A program made the translations under genes and the position numbers. Shown here piece by piece: positions 37,376 to 53,592 of a stretch of 64,000 nucleotides of DNA. Positions within the stretch are counted from its first letter, which is position 1. Every line of letters starts with the position of its first letter. The stretch comes from an uncultured Oscillospiraceae bacterium (lineage in GTDB: Bacteria; Bacillota; Clostridia; Oscillospirales; QAMX01), in the NCBI GenBank assembly GCA_964515055.1, contig CAZEUG010000001.1, forward strand, positions 21,921 to 85,920, written 5' to 3'. The notes beneath the pieces are model-generated. The model had not been told where the DNA came from. It saw only the letters and a program-made list of their open reading frames with translations, and did not search any database.

Positions 37376-37417
37376 AAAAAAAGTCAACGACCCGACAGCG
37401 GGTGGTTGACTTTTTTT
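37376..37417 (-). terminator. Terminator after the minus-strand Gfo/Idh/MocA gene (A/T runs on both sides)
   Basis: GTCAACGACCCG-ACAG-CGGGTGGTTGAC (one mismatch) flanked by A7 and T7 runs. Confidence 0.85.
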
Positions 37418-37437
37418 GCAGACTGCGTGCAGTGCCG

Positions 37438-38523
37438 TCAGTCAAAATAGATGGTTTTTCCGGTTTCGGCCGATGTGTAGATGGCTTCGATGATCTGCGA
37501 AACGACAGCTGCCTTCCGGCCGGGAGCCAGCAGGGGCGTCCCCTCCGTGATGGCGCTGATCCACTGGTTCATGTCGTACTGGCATTCATCCAGCTCACGC
37601 CCCTTGAAGAGGTCACGGGTGTAGCGGTTCGGTTCCAGCTCCTGAGTAAACAGCGAACCGTTGACTTCGCCGTTGATCCGGACGTGGCCGTTCTTCATGG
37701 AGAGCCCGGCGCGGTCGCCAACGATGATCGGTGTGTAGCCACACTGATCGGATTCCATGTTGATCGCCCAGGAGGCCTCAATGTGCATGGCACAGCCGTT
37801 CCGGAAGCGGATAAAGCCCATGGCGGAGTCCTCCACCTGGTACTCCTCCTCTGTAAACAGACGACCGTTGTTCGTTTCGGCGCATTTGGCACCCAGCTTC
37901 CGGTAGGAAACGCCGGTGACACTGGCGACGTCGTAGTTGTCGATGATAAACATGGCGGAGTCGATGGAGTGCGTGCCGATGTCGATCATGGGGCCGCCGC
38001 CCTGCTTTTCATAATCAAGGAAAACGCCCCAGGTCGGAATGCCGCGGCGGCGCAGATTGCGCGCCTTGACGTAGTAGACGTTGCCCAGCATTCCGTCGCG
38101 GACGACGTTGCGGGCGAGCTGGAACATGGCGGTGCTGCGCGTCTGATAGCCGACAGACAGGAGCTTCCCGGCTTTTTCAGCCGCCTCACACATGGCGAGC
38201 GCATCCGCATAGGTCTTGGCCATTGGCTTTTCGCTGTAGACGTGCTTTCCGGCCTTGAATGCGTCAATCGTGATGGGCGCATGGCTGGAGTTTGGCGTGC
38301 AGACGTGGACGGCTTCGATTTCGTCCATCGCGAGCAGCTCATGATAATCCTCAAAGACGCGGGCGCCTTCTACCCCGTATTCCCGGGCAGCCTTTTCGGC
38401 GCGCTCCCGAATGATGTCACAGAATGCGACAATCTGAATGTTTTCAACGCTTTTCAATCCGGGAAGATGCTTGCCGTTTGCAATTCCGCCGCATCCGATG
38501 ATGCCGACTTTTACAGGTCTCAT
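37438..38523 (-). CDS. Gfo/Idh/MocA family NAD(P)-dependent oxidoreductase (paralogue 1)
   Basis: MRPVKVGIIGCGGIANGKHLP Rossmann N-terminus and an EKPMA motif. The ATG at 38523 has a GGAGGA RBS. Confidence 0.85.
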   Translation of the reverse strand: MRPVKVGIIGCGGIANGKHLPGLKSVENIQIVAFCDIIRERAEKAAREYGVEGARVFEDYHELLAMDEIEAVHVCTPNSSHAPITIDAFKAGKHVYSEKPMAKTYADALAMCEAAEKAGKLLSVGYQTRSTAMFQLARNVVRDGMLGNVYYVKARNLRRRGIPTWGVFLDYEKQGGGPMIDIGTHSIDSAMFIIDNYDVASVTGVSYRKLGAKCAETNNGRLFTEEEYQVEDSAMGFIRFRNGCAMHIEASWAINMESDQCGYTPIIVGDRAGLSMKNGHVRINGEVNGSLFTQELEPNRYTRDLFKGRELDECQYDMNQWISAITEGTPLLAPGRKAAVVSQIIEAIYTSAETGKTIYFD

Positions 38524-38543
38524 ATCAAATCCTCCACTGTATC

Positions 38544-38561
38544 TGAGCACAGCCGTGCTCA
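38544..38561. promoter_or_regulatory. 18-nt palindrome in the leader of the minus-strand oxidoreductase gene (candidate operator or 5' hairpin)
   Basis: TGAGCAC-AGCC-GTGCTCA lies between the predicted -10 and the RBS. Confidence 0.3.
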
Positions 38562-38580
38562 TTCGATTTCTGACAGAATC

Positions 38581-38609
38581 AGTATAACACAATCGACCGT
38601 CAAATGCAA
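38581..38609 (-). promoter_or_regulatory. Candidate SigA-type promoter for the minus-strand oxidoreductase gene
   Basis: On the minus strand: TTGCAT, a 17-nt spacer, then TATACT. Confidence 0.45.
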
Positions 38610-38706
38610 TCCTGCTTCCGATGAAAAACGGACGGATTCATTTATCCTGAAGCGTGGTTGTTTGCAGGATATGGGAAAAAGTTTTTGAAAAAAAAGTGGA
38701 ACGCTG

Positions 38707-38735
38707 TTGAAATCAATGCACAAATCCTGTATAAT
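38707..38735 (+). promoter_or_regulatory. SigA-type promoter for the TIM-barrel / sulfatase-like / oxidoreductase operon
   Basis: TTGAAA, a 17-nt spacer, then TATAAT. Confidence 0.6.
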
Positions 38736-38801
38736 GAAGGTACCGGATTCTGCCGGCATCAAGGGGTCAAAAGCCCCATGCTTTGATCGGAGGAGATCTT
38801 T

Positions 38802-39599
38802 ATGATTCAGCTTGGCGTCAATACCGTTTTGTATAAGGCATTTTCTCTGCGGGAAGCCGTGGAAAATCTGAAAAAAATCGGCTATGACGGATTTGAAATT
38901 TCAGCCATTGAAGGAATGTGCGAACACCTGAACCTCAATGACTGGCGCAGTCAGAAAAATGAGATTTCGGAGCTCTGCGAAGAATTTGATATGAAAATTC
39001 TTGCGACAGAGGTGGCCAGCACGGATCCTGCCCGCCTGACGCTTGCATTTGAAGCGGCCAGAGAACTGGGCATCCCTGTTGTCAACATCGGCCCGCGGGG
39101 CAAATCCGATGATGAAGCCGATCTGGTCGACTGCATCGCCCACATGAACACGCTGGCAAAGCTCGCCGAAAGCTATGAAGTGACGCTGTGCATGAAGGCA
39201 CACGTCGGCTCCAGCGTCTACAGCACACCGACTACACTTCGCATGATCGAAGGCGTCAAGAATCCGTACTTCGGAATCGATATGGACCCCAGCCATATTT
39301 TCCGCTGCGGAGAGGAACCGGAGAACGCACTGTCCGCCGTTCTCCCGGCCATGCGTCATATCCATATCCGTGACTGCCACGGAAGACAGCAATCGCCCGG
39401 CCTGCCGCTTCAGCAGACCTGCGGCACAGGTGATATCAATTTGCGCGGCTATCTGGCCGAAATGGTCAAGCAGGGCTATCAGGGCCCGGTCGATCTCGAA
39501 GTGATCGGACCGGAACTGTCGCTGGCGGATGCCAACATCGTCGCCGCCGAGAGCTACGGTTATCTGAATGCCTGCCTGAAAGAGCTGGGCGCCCGCTGA
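38802..39599 (+). CDS. Xylose isomerase-like TIM-barrel protein (sugar phosphate isomerase/epimerase family)
   Basis: The N-terminus LGVNTVLYKAFSLREAVENLKKIGYDGFEIS and the HIHIRD metal-site motif are typical of this fold. Confidence 0.8.
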   Translation: MIQLGVNTVLYKAFSLREAVENLKKIGYDGFEISAIEGMCEHLNLNDWRSQKNEISELCEEFDMKILATEVASTDPARLTLAFEAARELGIPVVNIGPRGKSDDEADLVDCIAHMNTLAKLAESYEVTLCMKAHVGSSVYSTPTTLRMIEGVKNPYFGIDMDPSHIFRCGEEPENALSAVLPAMRHIHIRDCHGRQQSPGLPLQQTCGTGDINLRGYLAEMVKQGYQGPVDLEVIGPELSLADANIVAAESYGYLNACLKELGAR

Positions 39600-39615
39600 A
39601 AAGGAGGACTTTCTA

Positions 39616-41001
39616 ATGAAAAAAAAGCCGAATATTCTGTTCCTTGGCATTGATTCCTGCCGAGCCCTCAATCTGAGCCTCTGCGGGTATCACCGCCAGA
39701 CCACGCCGCATATCGACCGCATGGCGGAGGACGGCGTCAATTTCGTCAACTGCTTCTCTCCGAGCATTCCGACCCCTCCGGGCTATTCCGCACTGCTGAC
39801 CGGTCGGGACTGCTTCGGCACCGGCGTCGTGACGCTGCGCAATGTGCCGGAACTCGAAAAGGGCATCACGCTGCAGGAAGAACTGGCCAAAAACGGCTAC
39901 AACTGCACCTGCATCGGCTTCGGTGAGGAACCGTATACCCATGGCTTCCATAAATACATCAACTACTCCGGCTGGGGCGCAGACCGCCCGGACGGCAAAT
40001 CGCACAAAGCGGAAAACATGAACGACGTCGCCATCCCCGAGCTGAAACGCCTGGCCGCGGAGGATCAGCCGTTCTTCCTCTTCCTGCGCCACATGGATCC
40101 GCATTCCCCGTACCTCCCGCCGGCACCGTTCGACCGGATGTTCCACTCCGGTGACGAATGCGACCCGAACAACCACTCCCTGGACGATCTCTACAACTTC
40201 AAACCGTTCCGCGACTATTTCTGTGAATGGTTCCCGGCCGGATGCACCGACAAGGAATATGTCAACGCCCAGTACGACGGCGCCATCGCCTACATGGACA
40301 GCTGCATTCAGCGCATCTTCACCACTGTGAAGGAACTCGGCATCGAGGACGAAACGCTGATTGTTCTGACGAGTGACCACGGCGAAACGCTGGACGAGCA
40401 TGAATGCTACTATGACCACCACGGCCTGTATGAATGCACGCTGCACGTCCCGCTGGTCTTCAAATTCCCGGGCATTGTGCCGGAAGGCTATGTGTTTGAC
40501 GATTATGTCCAGCAGAAGGACGTCATGCCGACGATCCTGGAGCTGCTTGGCATCGAGACTGACCTGAAATTCGACGGCCGCAGCCTTGTCCCGTTCTGGA
40601 CGGGCGAAGAACGCGCTGCCGAACCGGAAATGTACCTGACCGAGTCCACCTGGATGCGGAAGCACGGCTGGCGGACACCGGAATGGAAGCTGATCGTCGC
40701 ACTGGAGCCGGACTTCCACTTCAAGCCACAGGTGGAGCTCTACAACCTGATCAAGGATCCGGACGAGCTGCATAACGTCGCAGACGAGGAACCGGAAGTC
40801 GTGAAAATGCTCACCAAGCGCATGGAAGACCACATCGCAAAGCGCAAAGCGGCCTACCAGACGGAAAACCCGATCGACCTGGCCGGAACGAAATGGAACC
40901 CGCTGGGCCGTCCGTTCGAATCCTGCGAGGAAGCGTACAACACCCTGCACATCGGCGACGCCAGCGCGGCACAGAAGCTCCAGTCGCACGAAAAGAAATA
41001 A
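39616..41001 (+). CDS. Sulfatase-fold (alkaline phosphatase superfamily) enzyme lacking the Cys/Ser-x-Pro-x-Arg formylglycine motif; no signal peptide
   Basis: NILFLGIDSCRALNLSLCGY, TSDHGE and the overall layout match type I sulfatases. The position of CxPxRxxxLTG reads TPPGYSALLTG. Confidence 0.75.
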   Translation: MKKKPNILFLGIDSCRALNLSLCGYHRQTTPHIDRMAEDGVNFVNCFSPSIPTPPGYSALLTGRDCFGTGVVTLRNVPELEKGITLQEELAKNGYNCTCIGFGEEPYTHGFHKYINYSGWGADRPDGKSHKAENMNDVAIPELKRLAAEDQPFFLFLRHMDPHSPYLPPAPFDRMFHSGDECDPNNHSLDDLYNFKPFRDYFCEWFPAGCTDKEYVNAQYDGAIAYMDSCIQRIFTTVKELGIEDETLIVLTSDHGETLDEHECYYDHHGLYECTLHVPLVFKFPGIVPEGYVFDDYVQQKDVMPTILELLGIETDLKFDGRSLVPFWTGEERAAEPEMYLTESTWMRKHGWRTPEWKLIVALEPDFHFKPQVELYNLIKDPDELHNVADEEPEVVKMLTKRMEDHIAKRKAAYQTENPIDLAGTKWNPLGRPFESCEEAYNTLHIGDASAAQKLQSHEKK

Positions 41002-41019
41002 GCAGAACCGGAGAAGGAT

Positions 41020-42021
41020 ATGCAAAGAGTTTGTGTGATTGGCCTTGGCCATATCGGAAATCTGCATTCGCGGATTTATCAGGGGTGCCAGGAGGCAGAG
41101 CTGGTCGGCGTGTGCGACCTGATTGAGGAGCGTGCAGCGGCCGCCGGAAAGGTCTATGGCGTTCCGTACTACCTGGACGCACAGCAAATGCTGGACGAGC
41201 TGAAGCCCGATCTGTGCAGCGTTGCGACAGGCGGCTATGAATACAGCTCAGACCATTACAAGCCGTCCATGCAGGTGCTGGCCTCCGGCGCACATCTGCT
41301 GTGCGAGAAGCCAATTTCCAATGACATCGGCCATGCGCGGGAAATGGTGGAGCTGGCAGAAAAGAACCATCGCTGCTTTGGCATCGACTTCAACCACCGC
41401 TTCACCCCGGCTTCCTTTGCCGCGGAACGCTGGCAGAAGGAAGGCCGCCTGGGTGACCTGCTGTTCTGCAATATGGCGCTCTGGATTGGCAAGCCCGGCT
41501 CCTTTGAATCGCCGTATTACCACCTCAAGGCGCTGAACCCGCATAGCGTGGACATGATGCGCCACTTCATGGGCGATGTCGAAAAGGTGCAGTGCTTCGC
41601 GATGAAAGCACCGGGGCGCGATATCTGGTCGAGCGCATCCATCAATATGTATTTCAAAAATGGAACCATCGGCCACCTGACCTCCAGCTATGACCTGGCT
41701 CGCGGTCATCCGATGGAACGCTGCGAGGTTGCTGGAACCAGGGGGAGAATGGTCATCGAGGATATGTGGCGCGAAGCGACACTGTACCCGGCTGACGATA
41801 TGACCAAGCTCTGCTATACGAATCCGGTCTTCGGCGGTTATTCCAACTTTGACGATACGTTCCGCTGCCGTATTGAGACGTTCGTCCGACAGGTGGACGG
41901 TGGTGCAGCACCGGAGGAGATCAACGGCAGCGGCCGGGACGGCCTGGAGGCGCAGCGCGTCATCCATGCGGCGATCAGAAGTCTGGATGAAGGACGGATC
42001 GTCGAGGTTGCCGAAATTTGA
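41020..42021 (+). CDS. Gfo/Idh/MocA family oxidoreductase (paralogue 2)
   Basis: MQRVCVIGLGHIGNLH Rossmann N-terminus and a CEKPIS motif. Confidence 0.85.
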   Translation: MQRVCVIGLGHIGNLHSRIYQGCQEAELVGVCDLIEERAAAAGKVYGVPYYLDAQQMLDELKPDLCSVATGGYEYSSDHYKPSMQVLASGAHLLCEKPISNDIGHAREMVELAEKNHRCFGIDFNHRFTPASFAAERWQKEGRLGDLLFCNMALWIGKPGSFESPYYHLKALNPHSVDMMRHFMGDVEKVQCFAMKAPGRDIWSSASINMYFKNGTIGHLTSSYDLARGHPMERCEVAGTRGRMVIEDMWREATLYPADDMTKLCYTNPVFGGYSNFDDTFRCRIETFVRQVDGGAAPEEINGSGRDGLEAQRVIHAAIRSLDEGRIVEVAEI

Positions 42022-42101
42022 CCCATCCCTGCATGAATTTGTCCCCAAACCCCGGCCGGCGTGTGCCGGGAAAACCATAAAAAACAGGAGTTGACATACT
42101 T

Positions 42102-43214
42102 ATGGCGATTAAAACAGGCGTCGTTGGTATGGGCGGCATCGGTTATACCCATGCACGCGCATATGCGGCGGACCCGCTGGCAGAGCTGATTGCTGTCTGC
42201 GATATCAACCGCGAAGTGGCCGACAAGGCCGCGGAAGAATTCCACGTCAAAGCGTATTATTCGCTCAAGGAAATGATCGAATCGGAGCCCGATCTGGAAG
42301 CCGTCTCGATCTGCACCAGCGGCTACGAAAACGCTTCCTTCCACTTTGAACCGGCCATGGAAGCCCTGTCCTACGGGAAAAAGGTGCTCTGCGAGAAGCC
42401 GCTCTGCGCGGACATCCGCGATGCGCGTGAGCTGGTCAAATACGCTCTGGACAACAAGCTCTATCTGGGCTGCGACCTGAACCACTATTTCACAGACCTT
42501 GCCCTGCAGGCCAAAAAGCTGCAGGAGGAAGGCAACATCGGCGAGCTGGCCTACTGCCTCCATAAGGTCGGCTTTGACGGCAGCGAAATCGGCTACGGCG
42601 GCGTCAATGACCCGAAATCCCGTTGGCTCAAGCCGTATTCCCACTGCAAGGCCTTCCTGACGCATCCGTTCTCCGTCATGCGCTACTTCTGCGGCGATAT
42701 CACCCACGTCCAGGCCTTCCTGGATCGTCCGGGCGTCCGCAAGACGGCGGGAGATCCGATGCTCTCCATCAACAGCGTCAACTGCAAGTTTGAAAAAGGC
42801 GGCGTCGGCGTCCTGCTCAGCCAGCGCGGCGATGCGCGGTTTGGTCTCGGCGGCTGGTGGAGCTATGAGCATGCCGGTACACGCGGCACGTTCTGCATCG
42901 AAAACTGCGTCGAAAAGCTGACGTATTGGCCGGGTCAGCGCAAAAACGAAGAGGGCAAACTCGAAATGCCTGAACCGGAAGTCACCAATACTGGCATCAA
43001 GAACTTTGATGCGACCTTCCCGAAGCGGATTCACGCCTGGCTGGAGGATCTGACCAACAAGGTTCACTACGAATTCATCCGCGCCTCCGGCCGCGATGCA
43101 CTGGCCACCCTCGAATACATCGAAGCGGTCATCCAGTCCTACGAAGCAGGCGGCGAGATGGTTCGTCCGCATCCGCTGCCGGCGATCCACGGCACCCCGG
43201 AATATATTCACTGA
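42102..43214 (+). CDS. Gfo/Idh/MocA family oxidoreductase (paralogue 3)
   Basis: IKTGVVGMGGIGYTHARAY Rossmann N-terminus and a CEKPLC motif. Its last 51 nt lie inside the tandem repeat. Confidence 0.85.
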   Translation: MAIKTGVVGMGGIGYTHARAYAADPLAELIAVCDINREVADKAAEEFHVKAYYSLKEMIESEPDLEAVSICTSGYENASFHFEPAMEALSYGKKVLCEKPLCADIRDARELVKYALDNKLYLGCDLNHYFTDLALQAKKLQEEGNIGELAYCLHKVGFDGSEIGYGGVNDPKSRWLKPYSHCKAFLTHPFSVMRYFCGDITHVQAFLDRPGVRKTAGDPMLSINSVNCKFEKGGVGVLLSQRGDARFGLGGWWSYEHAGTRGTFCIENCVEKLTYWPGQRKNEEGKLEMPEPEVTNTGIKNFDATFPKRIHAWLEDLTNKVHYEFIRASGRDALATLEYIEAVIQSYEAGGEMVRPHPLPAIHGTPEYIH

Positions 43215-43223
43215 CCTTTCAAA

Positions 43224-43267
43224 CCGCCTCTCCGATGCGCTCCAATCGCCCGGAGAGGCGGTTTTTC
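43224..43267 (+). terminator. Rho-independent terminator after oxidoreductase paralogue 3 (inside repeat copy 1)
   Basis: CCGCCTCTCCG...CGGAGAGGCGG followed by TTTTT. Confidence 0.85.
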
Positions 43268-43409
43268 TGTCGATTGCCCCGGACTGCTAACCGCCAGGGA
43301 CGCAAACGGCCGCACCGCCCCGTGTGCAACGAGTGGTCAGGCAGATCAAGGCCGGGACTGATTCCATCCGGATTCAGCCCCGGTTTTGGTGCGGAAAAAG
43401 AAGAGGTTC

Positions 43410-43438
43410 TTGCAATTTTTACATTTAAAGCGTATAAT
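43410..43438 (+). promoter_or_regulatory. SigA-type yggS promoter, copy 1
   Basis: TTGCAA, a 17-nt spacer, then TATAAT. Confidence 0.6.
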
Positions 43439-43510
43439 AAAAAAGACGATCGGAACCTGCAACGGACAGTACCCGAACCGCCCAAACCAAGCGAATGGAA
43501 GATGAATTGC

Positions 43511-44071
43511 ATGACAGAGCCGGAAACCAACCGGATTCAGGATATCCAACAGAAAATCAAAGCCATCCAGCTGCGCGTCGCCGAAAGTGCAGCACACGCC
43601 GGGCGGACGCCCGCCTCTGTCACCCTGCTGGCGGCGACAAAAACGCGAACCTGCGACGAGGTGCGCGCAGCCATTGATGCCGGAATTGACGCCGTCGGCG
43701 AAAACCGCGTGCAGGAGCTACGCGATAAGCTCGCGCTGCACGCATACGACGGCTGCCCGCTGCACCTGATCGGCCCACTGCAAACCAACAAGGTGAAATA
43801 CCTGATCGGCCATGTCGCCATGATTCACTCGGTTGATTCAACCCATCTGGCCGATTGCATCCAGCAGCTGTCAGCACGTGCTAATGTGCAGACGGACGTC
43901 CTGATCGAGGTCAACATCGGCGGAGAGGCCAGTAAATCCGGTGTCACCCCGACAGACGCACAGCGGTTGGCAGAGCATCTCCTGACGCTGTCCGCAGTTC
44001 GCCTGCGCGGACTGATGACCCGTCCGCATCCGCTGCCGGCGATCCACGGCACCCCGGAATATATTCACTGA
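43511..44071 (+). pseudogene. Chimeric ORF: first 170 codons of yggS fused in frame to the last 16 codons and stop of the upstream oxidoreductase
   Basis: The translation ends ...LRGLMT|RPHPLPAIHGTPEYIH*. It lacks the YggS C-terminal third (the SMGMSRD...RVGSAIFG region). It has its own promoter, RBS and terminator copies. Confidence 0.8.
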
Positions 44072-44080
44072 CCTTTCAAA

Positions 44081-44124
44081 CCGCCTCTCCGATGCGCTCC
44101 AATCGCCCGGAGAGGCGGTTTTTC
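44081..44124 (+). terminator. Duplicate of the 43224 terminator (inside repeat copy 2)
   Basis: Identical sequence at +857. Confidence 0.85.
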
Positions 44125-44266
44125 TGTCGATTGCCCCGGACTGCTAACCGCCAGGGACGCAAACGGCCGCACCGCCCCGTGTGCAACGAGTGGTCAGGCA
44201 GATCAAGGCCGGGACTGATTCCATCCGGATTCAGCCCCGGTTTTGGTGCGGAAAAAGAAGAGGTTC

Positions 44267-44295
44267 TTGCAATTTTTACATTTAAAGCGTATAAT
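44267..44295 (+). promoter_or_regulatory. SigA-type yggS promoter, copy 2
   Basis: Identical to 43410-43438. Confidence 0.6.
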
Positions 44296-44367
44296 AAAAA
44301 AGACGATCGGAACCTGCAACGGACAGTACCCGAACCGCCCAAACCAAGCGAATGGAAGATGAATTGC

Positions 44368-45102
44368 ATGACAGAGCCGGAAACCAACCGGATTCAGGAT
44401 ATCCAACAGAAAATCAAAGCCATCCAGCTGCGCGTCGCCGAAAGTGCAGCACACGCCGGGCGGACGCCCGCCTCTGTCACCCTGCTGGCGGCGACAAAAA
44501 CGCGAACCTGCGACGAGGTGCGCGCAGCCATTGATGCCGGAATTGACGCCGTCGGCGAAAACCGCGTGCAGGAGCTACGCGATAAGCTCGCGCTGCACGC
44601 ATACGACGGCTGCCCGCTGCACCTGATCGGCCCACTGCAAACCAACAAGGTGAAATACCTGATCGGCCATGTCGCCATGATTCACTCGGTTGATTCAACC
44701 CATCTGGCCGATTGCATCCAGCAGCTGTCAGCACGTGCTAATGTGCAGACGGACGTCCTGATCGAGGTCAACATCGGCGGAGAGGCCAGTAAATCCGGTG
44801 TCACCCCGACAGACGCACAGCGGTTGGCAGAGCATCTCCTGACGCTGTCCGCAGTTCGCCTGCGCGGACTGATGACCATTCCACCGGTCGGAGAAGAGCC
44901 GCGCCGCTATTTTGCGACCATGCGCACGCAGTTTGAGCAGATGCGTCAAAATCTGCCGGCTTCATTTGATACACTGTCTATGGGCATGAGCCGTGATTTC
45001 GAAACGGCCATTGAAGAAGGTGCAACCATTGTCCGCGTGGGCAGCGCGATTTTCGGCGCCCGCCCGGCCAATCCGGTTCGGAAAGCGGAGGAACAGGCAT
45101 GA
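44368..45102 (+). CDS. yggS: YggS-family pyridoxal-phosphate homeostasis protein (intact copy)
   Basis: LLAATKTR (PLP Lys), GENRVQEL, HLIGPLQTNKVKY, LRGLMTIPP and LSMGMSRDFETAIEEGATIVRVGSAIFG motifs. The start is 44368 or 44359. The ORF-track start at 44092 is rejected. Confidence 0.88.
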   Translation: MTEPETNRIQDIQQKIKAIQLRVAESAAHAGRTPASVTLLAATKTRTCDEVRAAIDAGIDAVGENRVQELRDKLALHAYDGCPLHLIGPLQTNKVKYLIGHVAMIHSVDSTHLADCIQQLSARANVQTDVLIEVNIGGEASKSGVTPTDAQRLAEHLLTLSAVRLRGLMTIPPVGEEPRRYFATMRTQFEQMRQNLPASFDTLSMGMSRDFETAIEEGATIVRVGSAIFGARPANPVRKAEEQA

Positions 45103-45454: not shown

Positions 45455-47989
45455 ATGAATGCACAAACAACCAAACCGTTTCCAAAACTGTCAGAAACGG
45501 CAAAAAAACGCATTGGAATCCTTGAAAAAATTCTGAGAGTCATCGGTAAAGTTCTGGTGACCATTCTGCTCATTCTCCTGTTTACGGGGGTGCTTTGCGC
45601 CGGTGCGTTTGGCCTGTATGTTCGAAAATACCTGCAGCCGGATGTCGACATCGACATTGGCAATATCCGCATGAATTACTCCTCCGTCATCTACGCGACC
45701 AATTCGACCACCGGCGAGAAGACGGAGCTGACACGCCTGTACGGGACGGAAAACCGCGTGTGGGCGAACTACGATCAAATCCCGAAAAATCTGGTGGACG
45801 CCTTTATCGCCATCGAGGATGAACGCTTTGAAAGCCACAAGGGCGTGGACTGGAAGCGAACCATCGGCGCAACCATCAACCTGATCATGCCGTTTTCCTC
45901 CAACTTCGGCGGTTCCACAATCACGCAGCAGGTGATCAAAAACATCACCGGCGACAGCGAGCCGACGATTCAGCGCAAGGTTCTGGAAATCCTCCGTGCG
46001 CTGAATCTTGAACGCCAGCTCTCAAAAGACCAGATTATGGAGATCTACCTGAATACCATCAACCTGAGTCAGGGCTGCTACGGCGTCAGTTCGGCGGCGT
46101 ATGTCTACTTCGGCAAGGAGGTCAGCGACCTGAACCTGGCCGAATGCGCCTGCATCGCCGGGATTACCAACAGCCCTACCTACTACGACCCCTTCCAGAA
46201 CCCGGACAACAACAAGCGCCGTCAGGAGCTGATTCTGGGCAAAATGCTCGAGCTGGGCAAAATTTCACAGAATGAATATGAACGGGCCATCGGCGAGACG
46301 CTGGCCTTTCGGAAATATGACGATGAGGACAACAGCACCACCAACGTGCAGTCGTATTTTGTCGATCTGCTGATCAACGAACTCATCACGGAGCTGAAGG
46401 AAACCTACGGTTATTCGAACACCATCGCCTACAAAATGCTGTATGCGGGCGGCCTGACCATCGAGGCGACCATCGACCCCCGGGTGCAGGCGGCGATTGA
46501 ACAGGTCTATGCCGATCGGGACAATTTCCCGACCGTCAGAGGGACGACACAGCTTGAATCTGCTATGACGATTTTCTCCCCGGACGGCCGCCTGCTCGGC
46601 GTCGTCGGCGGAATCGGCACCAAATACGGGAATCTCGTCCTCAACCGCGCCGTTGCCAGACGCTCACCGGGTTCCTCCATCAAACCGATCAGCGTCTACG
46701 CTCCGGCCATCGAATATGGCCTGATCACGCCATACAGCGTGCTGGATGACTCGCCCTCCAAAATCATCAACAGCTCCGGCGCACTGGTTGAACCGGAATC
46801 TGCCATTCTGATCGGCGGGAACGAGCTCTCTGCATGGCCGGCCAACCAGAACCGCACGTATTCCGGCCGAACCACCATAACGACAGCTGTGGCCAAATCG
46901 CTGAATACCATTCCGGTTCGCGTGCTCGATCTGATGTCGCTGGAAACTGCCTTCCAGTTCGCGACGGAAAACTTCGGGCTGAGCCTGTTGCACCAGCAAA
47001 CCGTCAACGGGGTCTATTATGACGATATGACCTACTCGGCTCTGGCACTCGGCGGCGTCAGCCGCGGCGTTTCGCTGCTGGAAATGACGGCGGCCTATGT
47101 CCCATTTCTGAACGACGGGATTTATGTGGAGCCGACCACCTACCTGCGTGTGCTCGACTCGGACGGAAACGTCCTGATTGATCATACCGCCCGGGAAAAT
47201 GTCGCAATTTCCGCCGATACGGCGTATTATATGCGCGCCATGCTGGAAAACGTGGTGAAAAACGGTACCGGTTCCGCTGCATCACTCAACGGAATTTCCG
47301 TGGCCGGGAAAACCGGTACGACCTCCAACGACTATGATCGGTGGTTCATCGGCTTCACGCCGTATTACGTCGGCGGCGTCTGGTTCGGCTTCGATCTGCA
47401 GAAGGAAATCACCGGCCTGTCGGCCAACCCGGCCGTTTCCACCTGGAAACAGGTCATGGAAATTCTGCATGAAGATCAGCCGGCTGCAACCTTTGAAACA
47501 CTACCCAACCTGCAAACGTATTCCTACTGCCTCGACAGCGGCGGCATCCCAACGGCGGCCTGCAAGGCTGACCCCCGCGGCAGCCGCGTCGCCTACGGGA
47601 AATTCCAGCCGGAGGATGCGCCAAAGTCGCTCTGCTCCATGCATACAACGGTTCAGGTCTGCAGCGAATCAGGCAAGCTCGCCCGCGCACACTGCCCGGA
47701 GGAATCGCTGACAACCGTTTCGCGCCTGAATCTCTACCGCTATTTTGCGGTGCCGAATGTCTCGGTGGCCGACGAGAAATATACCGTCCACTTTGAAGGC
47801 ATCCTCTCCGAACGCATCCTTTCGTATTATTACCCGGCAACCTGCTCTGACGGCTACGCGCTGGAAGGACAGTGCACGATTCATGTCACCGCACCGCAGC
47901 CGACCGACCCGGATGTGACCGATGAAACCGGCGGGACGGATTTCCAACCGATTGAGCCGCCGGAGCCGGATATCACCCCGGACGACTGA
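45455..47989 (+). CDS. Class A penicillin-binding protein (PBP1A-type glycosyltransferase/transpeptidase)
   Basis: N-terminal TM. GT51 motifs (AFIAIEDERFESHKGVD, GGSTITQQ). Transpeptidase SxxK (PGSSIKP) and KTG (GKTGTT). The ATG at 45455 is chosen. Confidence 0.9.
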   Translation: MNAQTTKPFPKLSETAKKRIGILEKILRVIGKVLVTILLILLFTGVLCAGAFGLYVRKYLQPDVDIDIGNIRMNYSSVIYATNSTTGEKTELTRLYGTENRVWANYDQIPKNLVDAFIAIEDERFESHKGVDWKRTIGATINLIMPFSSNFGGSTITQQVIKNITGDSEPTIQRKVLEILRALNLERQLSKDQIMEIYLNTINLSQGCYGVSSAAYVYFGKEVSDLNLAECACIAGITNSPTYYDPFQNPDNNKRRQELILGKMLELGKISQNEYERAIGETLAFRKYDDEDNSTTNVQSYFVDLLINELITELKETYGYSNTIAYKMLYAGGLTIEATIDPRVQAAIEQVYADRDNFPTVRGTTQLESAMTIFSPDGRLLGVVGGIGTKYGNLVLNRAVARRSPGSSIKPISVYAPAIEYGLITPYSVLDDSPSKIINSSGALVEPESAILIGGNELSAWPANQNRTYSGRTTITTAVAKSLNTIPVRVLDLMSLETAFQFATENFGLSLLHQQTVNGVYYDDMTYSALALGGVSRGVSLLEMTAAYVPFLNDGIYVEPTTYLRVLDSDGNVLIDHTARENVAISADTAYYMRAMLENVVKNGTGSAASLNGISVAGKTGTTSNDYDRWFIGFTPYYVGGVWFGFDLQKEITGLSANPAVSTWKQVMEILHEDQPAATFETLPNLQTYSYCLDSGGIPTAACKADPRGSRVAYGKFQPEDAPKSLCSMHTTVQVCSESGKLARAHCPEESLTTVSRLNLYRYFAVPNVSVADEKYTVHFEGILSERILSYYYPATCSDGYALEGQCTIHVTAPQPTDPDVTDETGGTDFQPIEPPEPDITPDD

Positions 47990-48019
47990 ACAGAAACTTG
48001 ACGGACAGGGAGGTTCACT

Positions 48020-48934
48020 GTGTCCAATTCTGCAAACCTTACCGCGAAAGACCTGACGCGGCTGCTGCCGGGCGGTCTGGTTCTCCAAAATGAACCGCTG
48101 GCAGCGCATACCTCGTTTCAAATCGGCGGCCCATGCGCCGTCTTTGCAGTGCCCGGCTCCGAAGAGGAGCTGGCCGCTCTGCTTCAATATACCGCGGAAA
48201 AGGCGCTGCCGCGCTTCCTGATGGGCAGCGGCACCAACCTGCTGTGCGCAGATGCGGGCTTTGACGGCGTAGTCATCCAGACCGGCCGCCTTTGCCGGGT
48301 GTCCGTTGAAGACCATGTGGTCACAGCAGGAGCGGGGAGCTCCCTGACCAGGACGGCCTATGCGGCCATGAACGCGGGGCTGACCGGGCTGGAATTTGCA
48401 CACGGCATTCCGGGCAGCGTTGGCGGCGGCGCGGTCATGAACGCCGGCGCATATGGCGGCGCTCTGCAGGACGTGATTCTCGACGTGACCTGCCTGGATG
48501 ACGATGGCAACCGCCGGCGCTTTTCCAACATTGAATCGGCGTTTTCCTATCGCCACAGCCGCTTCCAGGAGGAACCGCTGACCGTTACATCGGTTCGGTT
48601 TGCCCTGCAGCCGGGCGAGCCGGATGCCATACGTGCAACGATGAACGAGCTGGCGGAGCGCCGCCGCGCAAAGCAGCCACTCGAACTGCCGAGCGCGGGG
48701 AGTGTTTTCAAACGTCCGCCCAATGGCTATGCCTCTGCCATGATCGATGAATGCGGTCTGAAGGGGCTGACGGTCGGCGGTGCCTGTGTTTCACCCAAAC
48801 ACGCAGGCTTTATCGTGAACAACGGCGGCGCAACGTGTGCAGATGTGCTGCAACTGATTGAAATCATCCAAACCCACATTCAGAACCGGTTCGGCGTGCG
48901 GCTGGAATGCGAAATCCGAACGCTGGGGTTCTGA
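48020..48934 (+). CDS. murB: UDP-N-acetylenolpyruvoylglucosamine reductase
   Basis: FQIGGPCAVFAVP, GSGTNLL and PSAGSVFKRP motifs. Confidence 0.92.
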   Translation: MSNSANLTAKDLTRLLPGGLVLQNEPLAAHTSFQIGGPCAVFAVPGSEEELAALLQYTAEKALPRFLMGSGTNLLCADAGFDGVVIQTGRLCRVSVEDHVVTAGAGSSLTRTAYAAMNAGLTGLEFAHGIPGSVGGGAVMNAGAYGGALQDVILDVTCLDDDGNRRRFSNIESAFSYRHSRFQEEPLTVTSVRFALQPGEPDAIRATMNELAERRRAKQPLELPSAGSVFKRPPNGYASAMIDECGLKGLTVGGACVSPKHAGFIVNNGGATCADVLQLIEIIQTHIQNRFGVRLECEIRTLGF

Positions 48935-48960
48935 ACAACCGACAGAAAGGAGAAGCAGCC

Positions 48961-49881
48961 ATGTCCTTTTCCGGCAGTGCCAAAACGGAAGTCTGTAGAA
49001 TTCCGGTGCAAAAGCCGTGCTGCGCCCTGGCGGAGCTGTATGGCATTCTGCTCTTTGCGAGTACCTTTTCGCCACAGGAAATCCGAATCATCACCGGCAA
49101 CGAAAAGCTGGCGCGCCGCATCGCTCAGCTCTGTGCCGCACAGCAACCGTCGATTGAGCTCCCGTTCGAAACGACAACGGTTTCCGGCGGACGGACGATT
49201 CTGACGCTTGCGGACTCGGAACGGATTGCACCGCTGCTCCACCTCTTTGGCTACGATGAAACCGGCTTCCTGACGCTGCATTTTCACGGCTGGATGGTCG
49301 AGTCGGACTGCTGCCGTGCGGCGTTTTTGCGCGGTGCATTTCTGACGGGCGGCTATCTGGCCGAACCGGAAAAAATGTACTACCTGGAGCTGTCCAGCCC
49401 GCACGCACTGATGATGCGGGAGCTGGGCATCCTGTTTGCGGATATGGAGCTGCACCTGAAAGCCGGACGCCGGAAGGACAATGCACTCCTGTACTGCAAG
49501 GACAGCGAAACCATCGAAACGTATCTGACGGTGATTGGCGCCCACCGTTCCGTCATCAATTTTATGGAGACACGCGTGATCAAGGATGTCCGAAACACCA
49601 TCAATCGCCGTGTCAACTGCGAAGCATCCAATATCATCAAGGCGGCCGAAAACGGGACGAATCAACTGAAGCTCCTCCAACGCATCGAGCAGGCCGGACA
49701 GACGGAGCAGCTCGACGATAAGCTGCGGGAGGCCATGCAGCTTCGAATGCAATACCCCGATGAAACGCTGGCCGAGCTGGCTGCCCGCGCCAATCCGCCC
49801 GTTTCGAAATCCGGCCTGAACCATCGTCTGAAAAAACTGATGGCCATAGCAGAGACCCTTCCGGAGGTTCCGGAAGCATAG
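48961..49881 (+). CDS. whiA: DNA-binding protein WhiA
   Basis: MSFSGSAKTEVCRI...CCALAELYGILLF N-terminus and a C-terminal HTH (LAELA...SKSGLNHRLKKL). Confidence 0.9.
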   Translation: MSFSGSAKTEVCRIPVQKPCCALAELYGILLFASTFSPQEIRIITGNEKLARRIAQLCAAQQPSIELPFETTTVSGGRTILTLADSERIAPLLHLFGYDETGFLTLHFHGWMVESDCCRAAFLRGAFLTGGYLAEPEKMYYLELSSPHALMMRELGILFADMELHLKAGRRKDNALLYCKDSETIETYLTVIGAHRSVINFMETRVIKDVRNTINRRVNCEASNIIKAAENGTNQLKLLQRIEQAGQTEQLDDKLREAMQLRMQYPDETLAELAARANPPVSKSGLNHRLKKLMAIAETLPEVPEA

Positions 49882-49900
49882 CGCGAAAGGGGATGCCTGA

Positions 49901-52900
49901 ATGACTGATTTTGTCCATTTGCACGTTCACACGGAATACAGTCTGCTGGACGGCGCCTGCCGCATCAGCCGGTTGATGGATTATGTCAAATCCATCGGGC
50001 AGTCGGCCATTGCGATCACCGATCACGGCGCAATGTTCGGCGTGTACGATTTCTATCGCGCCGCAAAAGCTGCCGGTGTCAAACCGATCATCGGCTGCGA
50101 GGTGTATGTGGCACCGCGCAGTCGCTTTGACCGCCAGAGCGAGGATGCCCATGCATCCCACCTGGTGCTGCTCTGCGAAACACGGGAAGGGTACCGGAAT
50201 CTGTGCAGGCTGGTTAGTTGTGCCTATACAGAGGGCTTCTATAAGAAGCCGCGCATTGATCTGGAGCTGCTGGAACAGCACGCCGAAGGCCTGATCGGCC
50301 TCTCCGCCTGCCTGGCCGGTGACGTGGCCAGACACCTGTCCGCCGAGGATTATGACGGCGCTCTGAGCTGCGCCAGGCGATACGATCGGATTTTTGGCCA
50401 CGGCAATTTCTTCCTGGAGCTGCAGGATCATCAGATTCCGGAGCAGAAGCTCGTCAATCGCGGCATCCGCAGACTGCATTCAGAAACCGGCATCCCGATG
50501 GTCATCACCAATGACGCGCATTACATTCGCAGGGAGGAAGCAGAGCTGCAGGACGTTCTGATGTGCATCCAGACCGGCAAAACCGTTGACACACCGGATC
50601 GCCTCCGCTTTTCCACACAGGAATTCTATATCAAATCGGCGGATGAACTCGGTGAGCTGTTCCCGGACGATGAGGCCGCCTTCGAAAATACGGTGAAAAT
50701 CGCGGAAAGATGCCAATCCGACTTTTTTGATTTCACCGGGTATATCCTCCCGCAGTATCAGGCGGAAACCGGCGAGGACAGCAAGACCTACCTCCGCCGG
50801 AAAAGTGAAGAGGGTTTTTTACGCCGATACGGCGAAAACGCGCCGCAGGCCTATCGCGATCGTTTGAACTATGAGCTGGATGTCATCATTCAGATGGGCT
50901 TCGCTGACTACTACCTGATCGTCTGGGATTACGTTCAGTATGCCAGAAGCCGTGAAATTCCGGTCGGCCCGGGACGCGGCTCCGGTGCAGGCAGTCTGGT
51001 GGCCTACTGCATGGGCATCACCAACATCTGCCCCATGAAATACGCGCTCTATTTCGAGCGCTTCCTGAATCCGGAACGCGTTTCCATGCCGGACTTTGAT
51101 GTGGATTTCTGCCCGAAGCGCCGCGGCGAGGTCATTCAGTATATGTCGGAGCGCTATGGTGCTGAGCACGTGGCGCAAATCGTGACGTTTGGCACCATGG
51201 CCGCACGGAGCGTCATCCGCGATGTCGGCCGCGCATTTGGCGTACCGCTGACACAGGTGGACGCATTGGCCAAGCTCGTACCGAATGAGCTGCACATGAC
51301 CATTGAAAAGGCACTGCAAAAATCCGCAGACCTGAAAGCGCAGTATGAGCAGGACGAAACGACACACCGCCTGATCGATACGGCCATGTGGCTCGAGGGA
51401 ATGCCGAAAAATACGTCGACCCACGCGGCGGGCGTTGTGCTGACGCCAAAGGCCACCAGTGAATATGTGCCGCTGGCGGTCAATGAAAATGTCGTCGTGA
51501 CACAGTTCCCTATGACGTCCATCGGCGACCTGGGACTGGTCAAAATGGACTTTCTCGGCCTGCGCAATCTGACCATCATTGCCGACGCGGAACGCATGAT
51601 CCGCGAAACGCAGCCGGATTTCCGGATTGAACAGATTCCGGACGATGACCCCCAGACGTTCCAGATGCTGGCAGAGGGGAAAACGTGCGGCGTGTTTCAG
51701 CTCGAATCGGCGGGCATGACCTCCGTAGCCGTCGGTATGCAGGCACAGTCGATTGAAGAAATCTGCGCCGTGATCGCGCTGTATCGTCCGGGCCCCATGG
51801 AGTCGATTCCCAGGTTCATCGATGGCAAGAAGCACCCGGAGCGCGTCTCCTACGCCCACCCGATGCTGAAGGATATTCTGGACGTCACCTACGGCTGTCC
51901 GCTCTATCAGGAGCAGGTGATGATGATATTCCGCAAGCTGGCCGGCTACTCCATGGGTCGCGCCGATATTGTGCGCCGCGCCATCAGCAAGAAAAAGACG
52001 GAAGCCCTGCGACAGGAGCGCGAGAATTTTCTCTACGGCAATGAAAAAGAGGGCATTCCGGGCTGCATCGCCAACGGCGTCGATGAAAAAACGGCCACGG
52101 AGATTTTTGAGGCCGTGCTCGACTTCGGCGGCTATGCCTTCAATAAAGCGCACTCCGCGGCCTATGCCATGGTGTCCTATCAGACGGCGTACCTGAAATG
52201 CCGCTACCCGCAGGAATACATGGGCGCGCTGCTGTCCAGCGTGCTGGGCAACCCGGCCAAGGTGGCAGAATACATCGGCGAATGCAAAACCATGGGCATT
52301 GCCATTCTGCCGCCGGACGTCAACCGCTCGGAAATGCATTTTGCAGTTGACGGCAAGGATATCCGCTTCGGAATGTGCGCGATCAAAAACGTCAGCGAAA
52401 AGCTGATCGCCGATCTCGTGGGCGAACGCCGGGAAAACGGCCCGTTCATGGGCTTTGCTGATTTCTGCAGCCGAATGTCCTGCCATGAACTGAACAGTAA
52501 AACCGTGGAATGGCTGATCAAGGCCGGGGCGTGCGACTGTTTTGGCCTGAACCGGATGCAGATGCTCAACGCGTATGACAACCTGATTGCATCGGCCATT
52601 CTGGAGCGAAAAAGCAAGATCGAGGGGCAGCTGTCCCTGTTCGGAGAAGAAGAGGATCAGAGCATCAACGAACCGGTCATTCCGGACATGAAGGATTTCA
52701 CCCGCCGGGAGCGGTTTGCCATGGAAAAGGAAGCCATGGGGATTTATCTCTCCGGCCATCCGGCAGATGAATATCAGGCATCCTTCCGTCAGGCGGGCTG
52801 CATTGCCATCCGTGAGCTGCTCGGCGATGAAGAGGAACGCGAGGAACCGGACGATTCAGAGTCCACGCTGCTGTCCGGCAACACGGAATATGACAACCGC

Positions 52901-53464
52901 GAGGTGACCATTGGCGGCGTCGTGACGGCGCTGAAGCAGAAGGTCACAAAGAGCGGGCAAACCATGGCGTTTGCAACGGTCGAAGACCTGACCGGCGCGA
53001 TGGAAATTCTCGTCTTTCCGAAGATTCTGACGGAATACGGTCTGTTCCTGAAACAGGAGAACGCCGTTATTCTGCGCGGAAGGGTCAGCCTGCGGGAAAA
53101 TGAGGAGCCGAAGCTGATCTGCGAACGCATCCGGCTGGCGACGAGCAACGGACAGGAAACACCTGCGCCGCCCATGATGGAACCGCGGGAACCGTTGCCG
53201 ACAGCCGGGGAACCGCAGGAGCCGCGCCTGCAGTTTGCACCGGAGCAGAAGCTCTACCTCCGTGTCTATAACGAGGAACAGCGCTTCTTTGAACGGCTGA
53301 AGGGGCTGTTCACCATGTTCCCCGGAACGCGACAGGCCATCCTCTACTATCCGGTGTCGCAGCGCCGCCTGGCAACGGATGCATCCCTGCGCGTGAGCGA
53401 TGATATGCGCCTGTATCGGGAGCTGTACCGCCTGCTGGGCGAGGAAAACGTCAAGCTGAAGTAA
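49901..53464 (+). CDS. dnaE: DNA polymerase III alpha subunit (DnaE type)
   Basis: PHP domain FVHLHVHTEYSLLDGA and the catalytic region PDFDVDF. 1187 aa. Confidence 0.95.
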   Translation: MTDFVHLHVHTEYSLLDGACRISRLMDYVKSIGQSAIAITDHGAMFGVYDFYRAAKAAGVKPIIGCEVYVAPRSRFDRQSEDAHASHLVLLCETREGYRNLCRLVSCAYTEGFYKKPRIDLELLEQHAEGLIGLSACLAGDVARHLSAEDYDGALSCARRYDRIFGHGNFFLELQDHQIPEQKLVNRGIRRLHSETGIPMVITNDAHYIRREEAELQDVLMCIQTGKTVDTPDRLRFSTQEFYIKSADELGELFPDDEAAFENTVKIAERCQSDFFDFTGYILPQYQAETGEDSKTYLRRKSEEGFLRRYGENAPQAYRDRLNYELDVIIQMGFADYYLIVWDYVQYARSREIPVGPGRGSGAGSLVAYCMGITNICPMKYALYFERFLNPERVSMPDFDVDFCPKRRGEVIQYMSERYGAEHVAQIVTFGTMAARSVIRDVGRAFGVPLTQVDALAKLVPNELHMTIEKALQKSADLKAQYEQDETTHRLIDTAMWLEGMPKNTSTHAAGVVLTPKATSEYVPLAVNENVVVTQFPMTSIGDLGLVKMDFLGLRNLTIIADAERMIRETQPDFRIEQIPDDDPQTFQMLAEGKTCGVFQLESAGMTSVAVGMQAQSIEEICAVIALYRPGPMESIPRFIDGKKHPERVSYAHPMLKDILDVTYGCPLYQEQVMMIFRKLAGYSMGRADIVRRAISKKKTEALRQERENFLYGNEKEGIPGCIANGVDEKTATEIFEAVLDFGGYAFNKAHSAAYAMVSYQTAYLKCRYPQEYMGALLSSVLGNPAKVAEYIGECKTMGIAILPPDVNRSEMHFAVDGKDIRFGMCAIKNVSEKLIADLVGERRENGPFMGFADFCSRMSCHELNSKTVEWLIKAGACDCFGLNRMQMLNAYDNLIASAILERKSKIEGQLSLFGEEEDQSINEPVIPDMKDFTRRERFAMEKEAMGIYLSGHPADEYQASFRQAGCIAIRELLGDEEEREEPDDSESTLLSGNTEYDNREVTIGGVVTALKQKVTKSGQTMAFATVEDLTGAMEILVFPKILTEYGLFLKQENAVILRGRVSLRENEEPKLICERIRLATSNGQETPAPPMMEPREPLPTAGEPQEPRLQFAPEQKLYLRVYNEEQRFFERLKGLFTMFPGTRQAILYYPVSQRRLATDASLRVSDDMRLYRELYRLLGEENVKLK

Positions 53465-53504
53465 CGGACACAGGAAAAAGACACAGATTTTGTGAAAAAC
53501 AGGA

Positions 53505-53533
53505 TTGAAATTTGCACGCAAATTCGGTATAAT
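53505..53533 (+). promoter_or_regulatory. SigA-type promoter for dnaB-tilS-hpt-ftsH
   Basis: TTGAAA, a 17-nt spacer, then TATAAT. Confidence 0.6.
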
Positions 53534-53592
53534 AGATAAAATCAATCGATGTGTTGAACCGGGAACCACCGGACAGGAAAGGAGGCTGCATC

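Follow-up and report, generated by a model that had tools for sequence, protein, structure and literature searches.

The 64,000-nt stretch of DNA from an uncultured Oscillospiraceae bacterium that was analysed (the window) carries a perfect 857-nt head-to-tail repeat, whose second copy we regard, with a probability of about 0.5, as a product of the making of the record, in assembly or finishing, and as absent from the DNA of the organism. We infer such an origin from copies that are identical, breakpoints that are arbitrary and free of homology, the absence of the repeat from relatives, and a repeated unit that contains no whole gene. A reading of this DNA made from the letters alone (the sequence-only reading) had concluded that the repeat was either very recent or an artefact, and this is still the correct statement. 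The repeat is ordinary either way, whether it arose as an error of assembly or as a functionless duplication of very recent date.

A computed alignment of positions 43164-44020 with 44021-44877 gave 857 nt and 0 mismatches, which confirms the identity that had been claimed for the two copies. Each base equals the base 857 nt downstream for exactly positions 43164 to 44020, and this relation is broken one base beyond either end. The unit is present in exactly two copies, both on the plus strand (as are all genes and sites given below), and it is the sole repeat of at least 40 nt within the window; TRF omits it because the longest period that the program considers is 500. At the novel junction (44001-44040, with the break at 44020/44021) CTGATGACC is joined directly to CGTCCGCATCC. 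The match ends sharply on both sides with 0 nt of microhomology, as the sequence-only reading had also noted. This value is expected from an arbitrary join, where its chance is approximately 9/16. Within 40 nt on either side of the breakpoints the longest shared word has 7 nt, as it does in random pairs of 80-mers taken from the window. A cause in slippage or template switching was sought in the form of homology, inverted repeats and nearby microhomology, and none was found beyond chance. Tandem duplications mediated by homology or microhomology have a direct repeat or microhomology at both breakpoints, and neither was found here. Neither an Rfam scan nor a tRNA scan of the window returned anything relevant.

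The unit is composed of 51 nt of the 3' end of a GFO/IDH/MocA-family oxidoreductase gene, a 296-nt intergenic region and 510 nt of the 5' part of yggS, and the number of whole genes inside it is zero. Its limits agree with those proposed earlier, with a start 51 nt before the end of the oxidoreductase gene (42102-43214) and an end after codon 170 of yggS (start codon at 43511 in the first copy and at 44368 in the second), and the arithmetic that placed both breakpoints on codon boundaries holds. The two parental genes are intact, as had been read. Upstream, the oxidoreductase gene encodes 370 aa, matches PF01408 with 94.9 bits and has its exact protein on 8 public contigs; downstream, yggS (44368-45102) encodes 244 aa. 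Since a tandem duplication keeps both parental genes intact, it carries no cost of gene loss. An intrinsic-terminator-like hairpin with a U-run lies at 43221-43268 (scan match and fold) and again at 44078-44125 (scan match and identity of the unit), where it is now 3' of the chimeric ORF described below. The hairpin has a fold energy of -31.7 kcal/mol (z = -5.98); none of 200 shuffles was as stable. A promoter-like site, TTGCAA-17-TATAAT, which agrees with the consensus at 10 of 12 positions, occurs at 43410-43438 and at 44267-44295. A second complete transcription unit had been proposed on this basis; the hairpin and the promoter-like site are indeed both doubled, but the term is overstated for what are consensus matches only.

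The family of the downstream gene is settled by its TIGR00044 and PDB matches. Its product scores 186.6 bits against TIGR00044 (cutoff 106.25) over profile positions 2-229 of 229, aligns to E. coli YggS 1W8G with E = 5.4e-39 over residues 10-233, and was found as an exact 244-aa protein on public contigs. In E. coli YggS, K36 is the Schiff-base lysine, S205 and T223 are phosphate ligands and R220 is the N1 ligand (PMC9601805). The aligned ligands of the intact protein are K44 (equivalent to K36), S208 (in SMGMS), R223 and S226 (in RVGSAIFG), and it belongs to the YggS/PLPHP family both by the full-length profile and by these PLP ligands.

The junction ORF (43511-44071) encodes 186 aa, consisting of YggS residues 1-170 and a 16-aa tail from the oxidoreductase gene. 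It reads in frame through the junction as LRGLMT followed by RPHPLPAIHGTPEYIH and the stop codon, with GLMTRPHPLPAIHGTPEYIH as its junction-specific part. Translation bears out the earlier description of a 186-aa in-frame chimera followed by an intact yggS. The chimera was also said to keep the PLP lysine and to lose the SMGMS and RVGSAIFG segments, and both statements are correct, the lysine being K44. It covers only profile positions 2-165 of the 229 of TIGR00044, with 115.4 bits, and stops where E. coli YggS has residue 165. Eight pocket residues are missing from it (I166, G203, M204, S205, R220, I221, G222 and T223), among which the alignment to E. coli YggS places both PLP-phosphate ligands (S205 and T223) and the ring-N1 ligand R220. 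The TIM barrel would also be short of about two of its eight beta/alpha units, a quarter of the whole, and 43511-44071 encodes neither a complete (beta/alpha)8 barrel nor an intact PLP pocket. In exact look-ups, neither the 186-aa chimera nor its 278-aa long-ORF version was on record; the PBP of the window was not on record in the same kind of search. The chimera is probably a dead, truncated copy of yggS.

A genuine duplication might have been kept by selection if the chimera, or the extra copy of the promoter and terminator, had gained a function, for example as a fragment that binds PLP or RNA and so affects vitamin-B6 homeostasis, or by changing how yggS and the cell-wall genes downstream of it are regulated. 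We find this hardly credible. The ORF is in frame, is preceded by a weak Shine-Dalgarno sequence, has a promoter-like site, stop and terminator of its own, and retains K44 and a TIGR00044 score above the cutoff; against this stand the pocket residues that are gone, including both phosphate ligands and R220 (PMC9601805), the barrel units that would be missing, and the fact that the chimera is conserved in no relative and, at zero divergence, has no evolutionary history. By chance, one junction in three is in frame and one in nine has both breakpoints on codon boundaries, and neither is significant. Dosage selection is the usual force that keeps unstable tandem duplications at high frequency, and in a unit without a complete gene it has nothing to act on. 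In a selected gene amplification one or more complete genes are open to selection for dosage, often in more than two copies, and the present repeat has no such gene. Absent from near-identical relatives, without a whole gene in its unit and with a broken barrel, the chimera shows no sign of function or selection. If it were selected, it would be a gene seen at its very birth, before any divergence.

The codon-boundary placement would also fit a duplication that was added after assembly, deliberately or by accident, through record editing, a cloning construct or sequence manipulation, and so would the blunt and homology-free ends. We consider this origin very unlikely: the 1-in-9 placement lacks significance as stated above, the junction has no vector, linker or restriction-site scar, and the rest of the window shows nothing that looks engineered.

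The comparison with sister loci that the sequence-only reading had proposed was performed on 11 independent metagenome contigs of 99.6-100% identity, all of which are single-copy across both breakpoints. Three of them (L087, L089 and L098) are 100% identical to the window with the repeat collapsed. The identical strain is present in the runs SRR17221324, SRR22923256 and SRR19576302; a search of the literature for SRA run accessions had no hits. The nearest GTDB genome (approximately 95% nucleotide identity) is likewise single-copy, a 40-mer spanning the junction (44001-44040) was absent from 15 of 15 sister contigs tested, and no comparable duplication was found in 91 related loci (1.38 Mb). 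The 857-bp duplication is a private feature of this assembly. A false duplication from assembly or finishing would show identical copies side by side that other, independent assemblies of the strain lack, and this is the pattern found here. A junction 50-mer was also absent from JGI metagenome contigs, a result that is uninformative as a 42-mer from inside the unit was absent too (the organism is not in the collection). The k=31 Logan assemblies were queried with the partial YggS product of a contig starting at 44848, and none was found; this contig-start test for a junction was validated separately. No public contig begins at the k=31 graph break that is expected from a junction. The contig L089 ends exactly 31 nt past the right breakpoint. 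This end was considered as a trace of the junction and rejected, since it is in the wrong place for a junction-branch break; no SNP accounts for it, and we take it as a coincidence.

At all nine sites of the unit that are variable among the sister contigs the two copies have the same allele (for instance G at 43269 and 44126). The surrounding sequence has five private differences from its sisters, consisting of four substitutions and one 1-nt homopolymer (A-run) indel, with no frameshifts. An error-prone long-read assembly was considered and rejected; private homopolymer indels and frameshifts were sought, and just the one 1-nt A-run difference was seen. The surrounding sequence is clean and has no general mark of poor assembly, which speaks against an artefact.

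We nevertheless prefer an assembly or finishing artefact because of the zero divergence, the absence of microhomology at the junction and of homology within 40 nt of the breakpoints, the single copy without a junction in the 11 near-identical contigs and the nearest GTDB genome, a unit that offers dosage selection no complete gene, and the lack of a k=31 contig start of the kind a junction would cause. Two ends of contigs or of read consensuses that overlapped by 857 nt may have been joined end to end without being merged; a graph loop walked once too often, or an error of gap-filling or finishing, could have had the same outcome. The true locus would then be single-copy, as in every relative, with the oxidoreductase gene, terminator, promoter and yggS in this order, and the join would have created the 186-aa chimera as a side effect. 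De Bruijn-graph assemblers need reads with a novel junction in order to write one, and they normally discard a chimeric read that stands alone. If the assembly is a plain metaSPAdes or HiFi one, it is therefore simpler to suppose that the junction is genuine in some or all of the population.

A genuine tandem duplication of this kind, which arose very recently in the strain or population that was sequenced and is neutral or slightly deleterious, is a serious contender, with a chance that we would place somewhat short of even. It would have arisen by homology-independent (illegitimate) joining of sister chromosomes, via template switching at a stalled fork or end-joining, and RecA recombination between the 857-nt repeats would be expected to remove the second copy. 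The junction ORF would be a by-product, expressed or not, that is unable to fold into the YggS barrel. The read support that most modern assemblers require for a junction is in its favour, as are the strain-specific haplotype shared by both copies at 9/9 polymorphic sites, the clean surrounding consensus and the two intact parental genes. Growing populations often contain spontaneous duplications (PMC3411829). Duplications with 0-1 bp of homology at the junction are documented in experimental populations of Pseudomonas (bioRxiv 10.64898/2026.05.22.727201), which weighs against an artefact. However, verified spontaneous cases usually have microhomology, compared to 0 nt here; in a genome-wide survey of Salmonella their junctions shared 11 bp or more of homology, and junctions with little homology could not be told apart from chimeric reads (PMC3411829). 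The absence of the repeat from the 11 near-identical contigs, three of them identical, is also against a genuine duplication. No whole gene is doubled, so nothing would hold the repeat at consensus frequency, and drift to the population majority ahead of recombinational loss is uncommon.

The repeat matters mainly for data quality: the record as it stands will be annotated with a further "YggS family" gene, since even the truncated ORF scores above the TIGR00044 cutoff, and its locus structure would differ from that of every relative. If real, the repeat would be a small, clean case of tandem duplication without homology, with a chimeric ORF as its product, in an uncultured gut Oscillospiraceae. 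It would be useful for the study of junction formation outside model organisms and no new kind of biology.

Among known systems, E. coli YggS (1W8G, 7U9C) and the PLPHP proteins (COG0325, TIGR00044) resemble the full-length product of 44368-45102 in the Schiff-base lysine and the counterparts of S205, R220 and T223, whereas the 186-aa junction product, which stops at the residue 165 equivalent, is an incomplete member. Spontaneous RecA-independent tandem duplications in bacteria are the topic of reviews by Reams and Roth. The RecA-independent short-junction duplications of Salmonella and E. coli (PMC3411829) are similar to the present repeat in their head-to-tail chromosomal segment with identical copies, their intact parental genes, their novel junction ORF and their expected instability; the verified examples have at least 11 bp of junction microhomology and usually whole genes, in contrast to 0 nt and an 857-nt unit with no complete gene. 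The duplications of experimentally evolved Pseudomonas fluorescens SBW25 with 0-1 bp junctions (bioRxiv 10.64898/2026.05.22.727201) share the lack of a flanking repeat and have almost no microhomology. They extend over 285-767 kb, originated under selection and were both confirmed and quantified by junction reads, whereas the present repeat is sub-genic, is known from assembled sequence only and has no identifiable selection. False duplications from unmerged overlaps comprise untrimmed circularisation overlaps and scaffold or gap-filling joins, and are addressed by tools such as Circlator and Unicycler. With these the repeat shares identical adjacent copies, blunt and arbitrary breakpoints and absence from independent assemblies of the same strain; it differs in size, as circularisation overlaps from long-read assemblers usually measure several kb and de Bruijn-graph overlaps have the k-mer length (127 nt or less), and 857 nt is atypical of both.

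Direct comparison of positions 43164-44020 (copy 1) with 44021-44877 (copy 2) gave 857 nt with no mismatches, so that the perfect head-to-tail duplication claimed by the sequence-only reading holds. The period-857 identity is confined to exactly these positions and fails one base beyond either end; the microhomology at the junction (44020|44021) is therefore 0 nt, as that reading had also stated. No homology was found near the breakpoints, the longest common word within +/-40 nt being 7 nt, equal to that of random pairs of window segments. The duplication is the sole repeat of at least 40 nt within the 64-kb window (it is missing from the TRF output because of the TRF period limit of 500), and no comparable duplication was found across 91 related loci (1.38 Mb). 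Hence the duplication, which is real in the record, is rare; its significance is low.

The anatomy proposed earlier for the unit and its junction ORF agrees with the coordinates and translation. Each unit holds the last 51 nt (16 codons and stop) of the GFO/IDH/MocA-family oxidoreductase (GFO) gene 42102-43214 (PF01408, 94.9 bits) at 43164-43214 and 44021-44071; a terminator-like hairpin with U-run at 43221-43268 and 44078-44125 (-31.7 kcal/mol, z = -5.98); a promoter-like site, TTGCAA-17-TATAAT, at 43410-43438 and 44267-44295, a 10/12 consensus match only; a weak Shine-Dalgarno GGAAG, read from the sequence 9 nt 5' of ATG, at 43497-43501 and 44354-44358; and the first 170 codons of the YggS-family gene at 43511-44020 and 44368-44877. 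No complete gene lies within the unit. The GFO gene upstream and yggS downstream are both intact, and a tandem duplication always leaves both parental genes intact.

The full-length yggS copy (44368-45102, 244 aa) scores 186.6 bits on TIGR00044 (cutoff 106.25) with the whole profile covered, matches E. coli YggS 1W8G with E = 5e-39, and is a bona fide YggS/PLPHP member. Public gene calls differ on its start, ATG 44092 (336 aa) or ATG 44368 (244 aa), and divide the Logan metagenome contigs L087, L093 and L096-L098 from L001-L003, L088 and L095; the 336-aa call (44092-45102) spans the terminator hairpin and the promoter-like site. Since the family profile alignment begins at residue 10 of the 244-aa form, ATG 44368 is the credible start. 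Next comes a 108-aa RNHCP-domain gene (PF12647, 45099-45425), whose start shares 4 nt (ATGA) with the yggS stop and to which yggS may be translationally coupled. Class-A PBP, murB, whiA, dnaE, dnaB and tilS follow at 45455-56290, in what is a conserved neighbourhood of cell-wall and replication genes. On the other side, ~37400-43214 is probably a cluster for the utilisation of sulfated sugars or glycans. Besides a sulfatase and an AP_endonuc_2 (xylose-isomerase-like TIM) protein, it encodes three paralogous GFO/IDH/MocA oxidoreductases, one of them on the minus strand; several Logan contigs begin at 41098-41103, within the first plus-strand paralogue. The window (1-64000) has no tRNA genes and no Rfam match at gathering thresholds, and its GC of 49-61% reveals no obvious island.

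The junction is in frame, as had been claimed, and yields a 186-aa ORF (43511-44071) of YggS residues 1-170 followed by RPHPLPAIHGTPEYIH and a stop. The chance of an in-frame junction is 1/3 and that of both breakpoints falling on codon boundaries 1/9, neither of which is remarkable. E. coli YggS is a monomeric TIM barrel of eight strands, whose PLP pocket includes K36 (Schiff base), M164, I166, G203, M204, S205, R220, I221, G222 and T223, with S205 and T223 hydrogen-bonding the phosphate and R220 the ring N1 (PMC9601805). The chimera retains the PLP-lysine (K44, equivalent to K36) and has lost SMGMS and RVGSAIFG, both as previously described; aligned to E. coli YggS, it is cut after the equivalent of residue 165 and has no equivalents of I166, G203-S205 and R220-T223. 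It would thus lack about two beta/alpha units at the C-terminal end, and we infer that a closed barrel and normal PLP binding would not be possible. On TIGR00044 the chimera reaches 115.4 bits and still exceeds the cutoff, so that automatic annotation would name it a YggS-family protein. As a YggS/PLPHP member the junction ORF is incomplete, and no biological interpretation of this extra 'YggS' is warranted.

The window comes from an uncultured Oscillospiraceae. The closest GTDB representative, CAYUXI010000006 (binchicken_co370_216; ~95% nucleotide and ~97% YggS amino-acid identity), has one copy at the yggS locus. Logan contigs from many SRA runs were retrieved by exact-protein look-ups of YggS, the GFO protein and the downstream RNHCP protein, and aligned against the window collapsed to one unit. 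The collapsed window is colinear with 14 near-identical contigs (99.6-100% identity; 100% for L087, L089 and L098). Both wild-type breakpoint 40-mers occur in 11 of the 14 (L001/L084, L002/L085, L003, L087, L088, L089, L093, L095, L096, L097, L098), and the junction 40-mer occurs in none of them, nor in the contig L004. At the nine sites within the unit that vary among these strains, the two window copies never differ, and they are therefore of one haplotype. An A-run right after the -10-like TATAAT before yggS (43438/43439, also 44295/44296) varies in length in L088 and L095, which could alter promoter context among strains; another A-run, at 38688, is privately 1 nt longer in the window than in three sister contigs.

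Exact look-up of the chimera as a 186-aa or 278-aa ORF gave no record; neither did the window's own PBP, so the source assembly is not in that protein and contig collection. The junction 50-mer is not in JGI metagenome contigs, a negative that is uninformative because a unit-internal 42-mer is missing there too. In a k=31 graph, a junction-bearing sample is expected to give a contig starting at 44848, and protein look-up found no record of its partial YggS product; the approach recovers one known edge-cut product. The single-copy L089 (SRR22923256) ends at 44908, beyond the right breakpoint by exactly 31 nt, which is the Logan k-mer size. Breaks caused by a junction branch would lie at a different place, and 44909 has no known SNP; the position is probably a coincidence.

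We put the probability that the duplication is an artefact at about 0.50, the false second copy then arising from an overlap left unmerged or some other error of finishing. The join is blunt and homology-free, the copies are perfectly identical, the duplication is restricted to one assembly and it offers no whole gene to dosage selection; all of this is as expected from such an error, and the last two points also count against a real, very young and neutral duplication. So does a Salmonella survey, in which the spontaneous duplications that were verified shared 11 bp or more at their junctions, versus 0 nt here, and low-homology junctions were like chimeric reads in behaviour (PMC3411829). However, junctions with 0-1 bp of homology have been reported from P. 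fluorescens populations under experimental evolution, graph-based assemblers require junction-containing reads in order to write such a structure, and the flanking consensus is clean and free of frameshifts, its 5 private differences being 4 substitutions and a 1-nt homopolymer indel; we give the young neutral duplication somewhat less than even odds. Both this and the artefact are ordinary. Manipulation after assembly seems very improbable, and a real duplication that is functional or selected more improbable still. The duplication in the record is best regarded as putative.

Among known systems, RecA-independent tandem duplication is alike in mechanism, although its usual hallmark, junction microhomology, is missing here. 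The hallmarks of selected amplification, a unit that includes a whole gene and a copy number above two, are both missing from the 857-nt duplication. At the level of sequence, it shows the hallmarks of a false assembly duplication.
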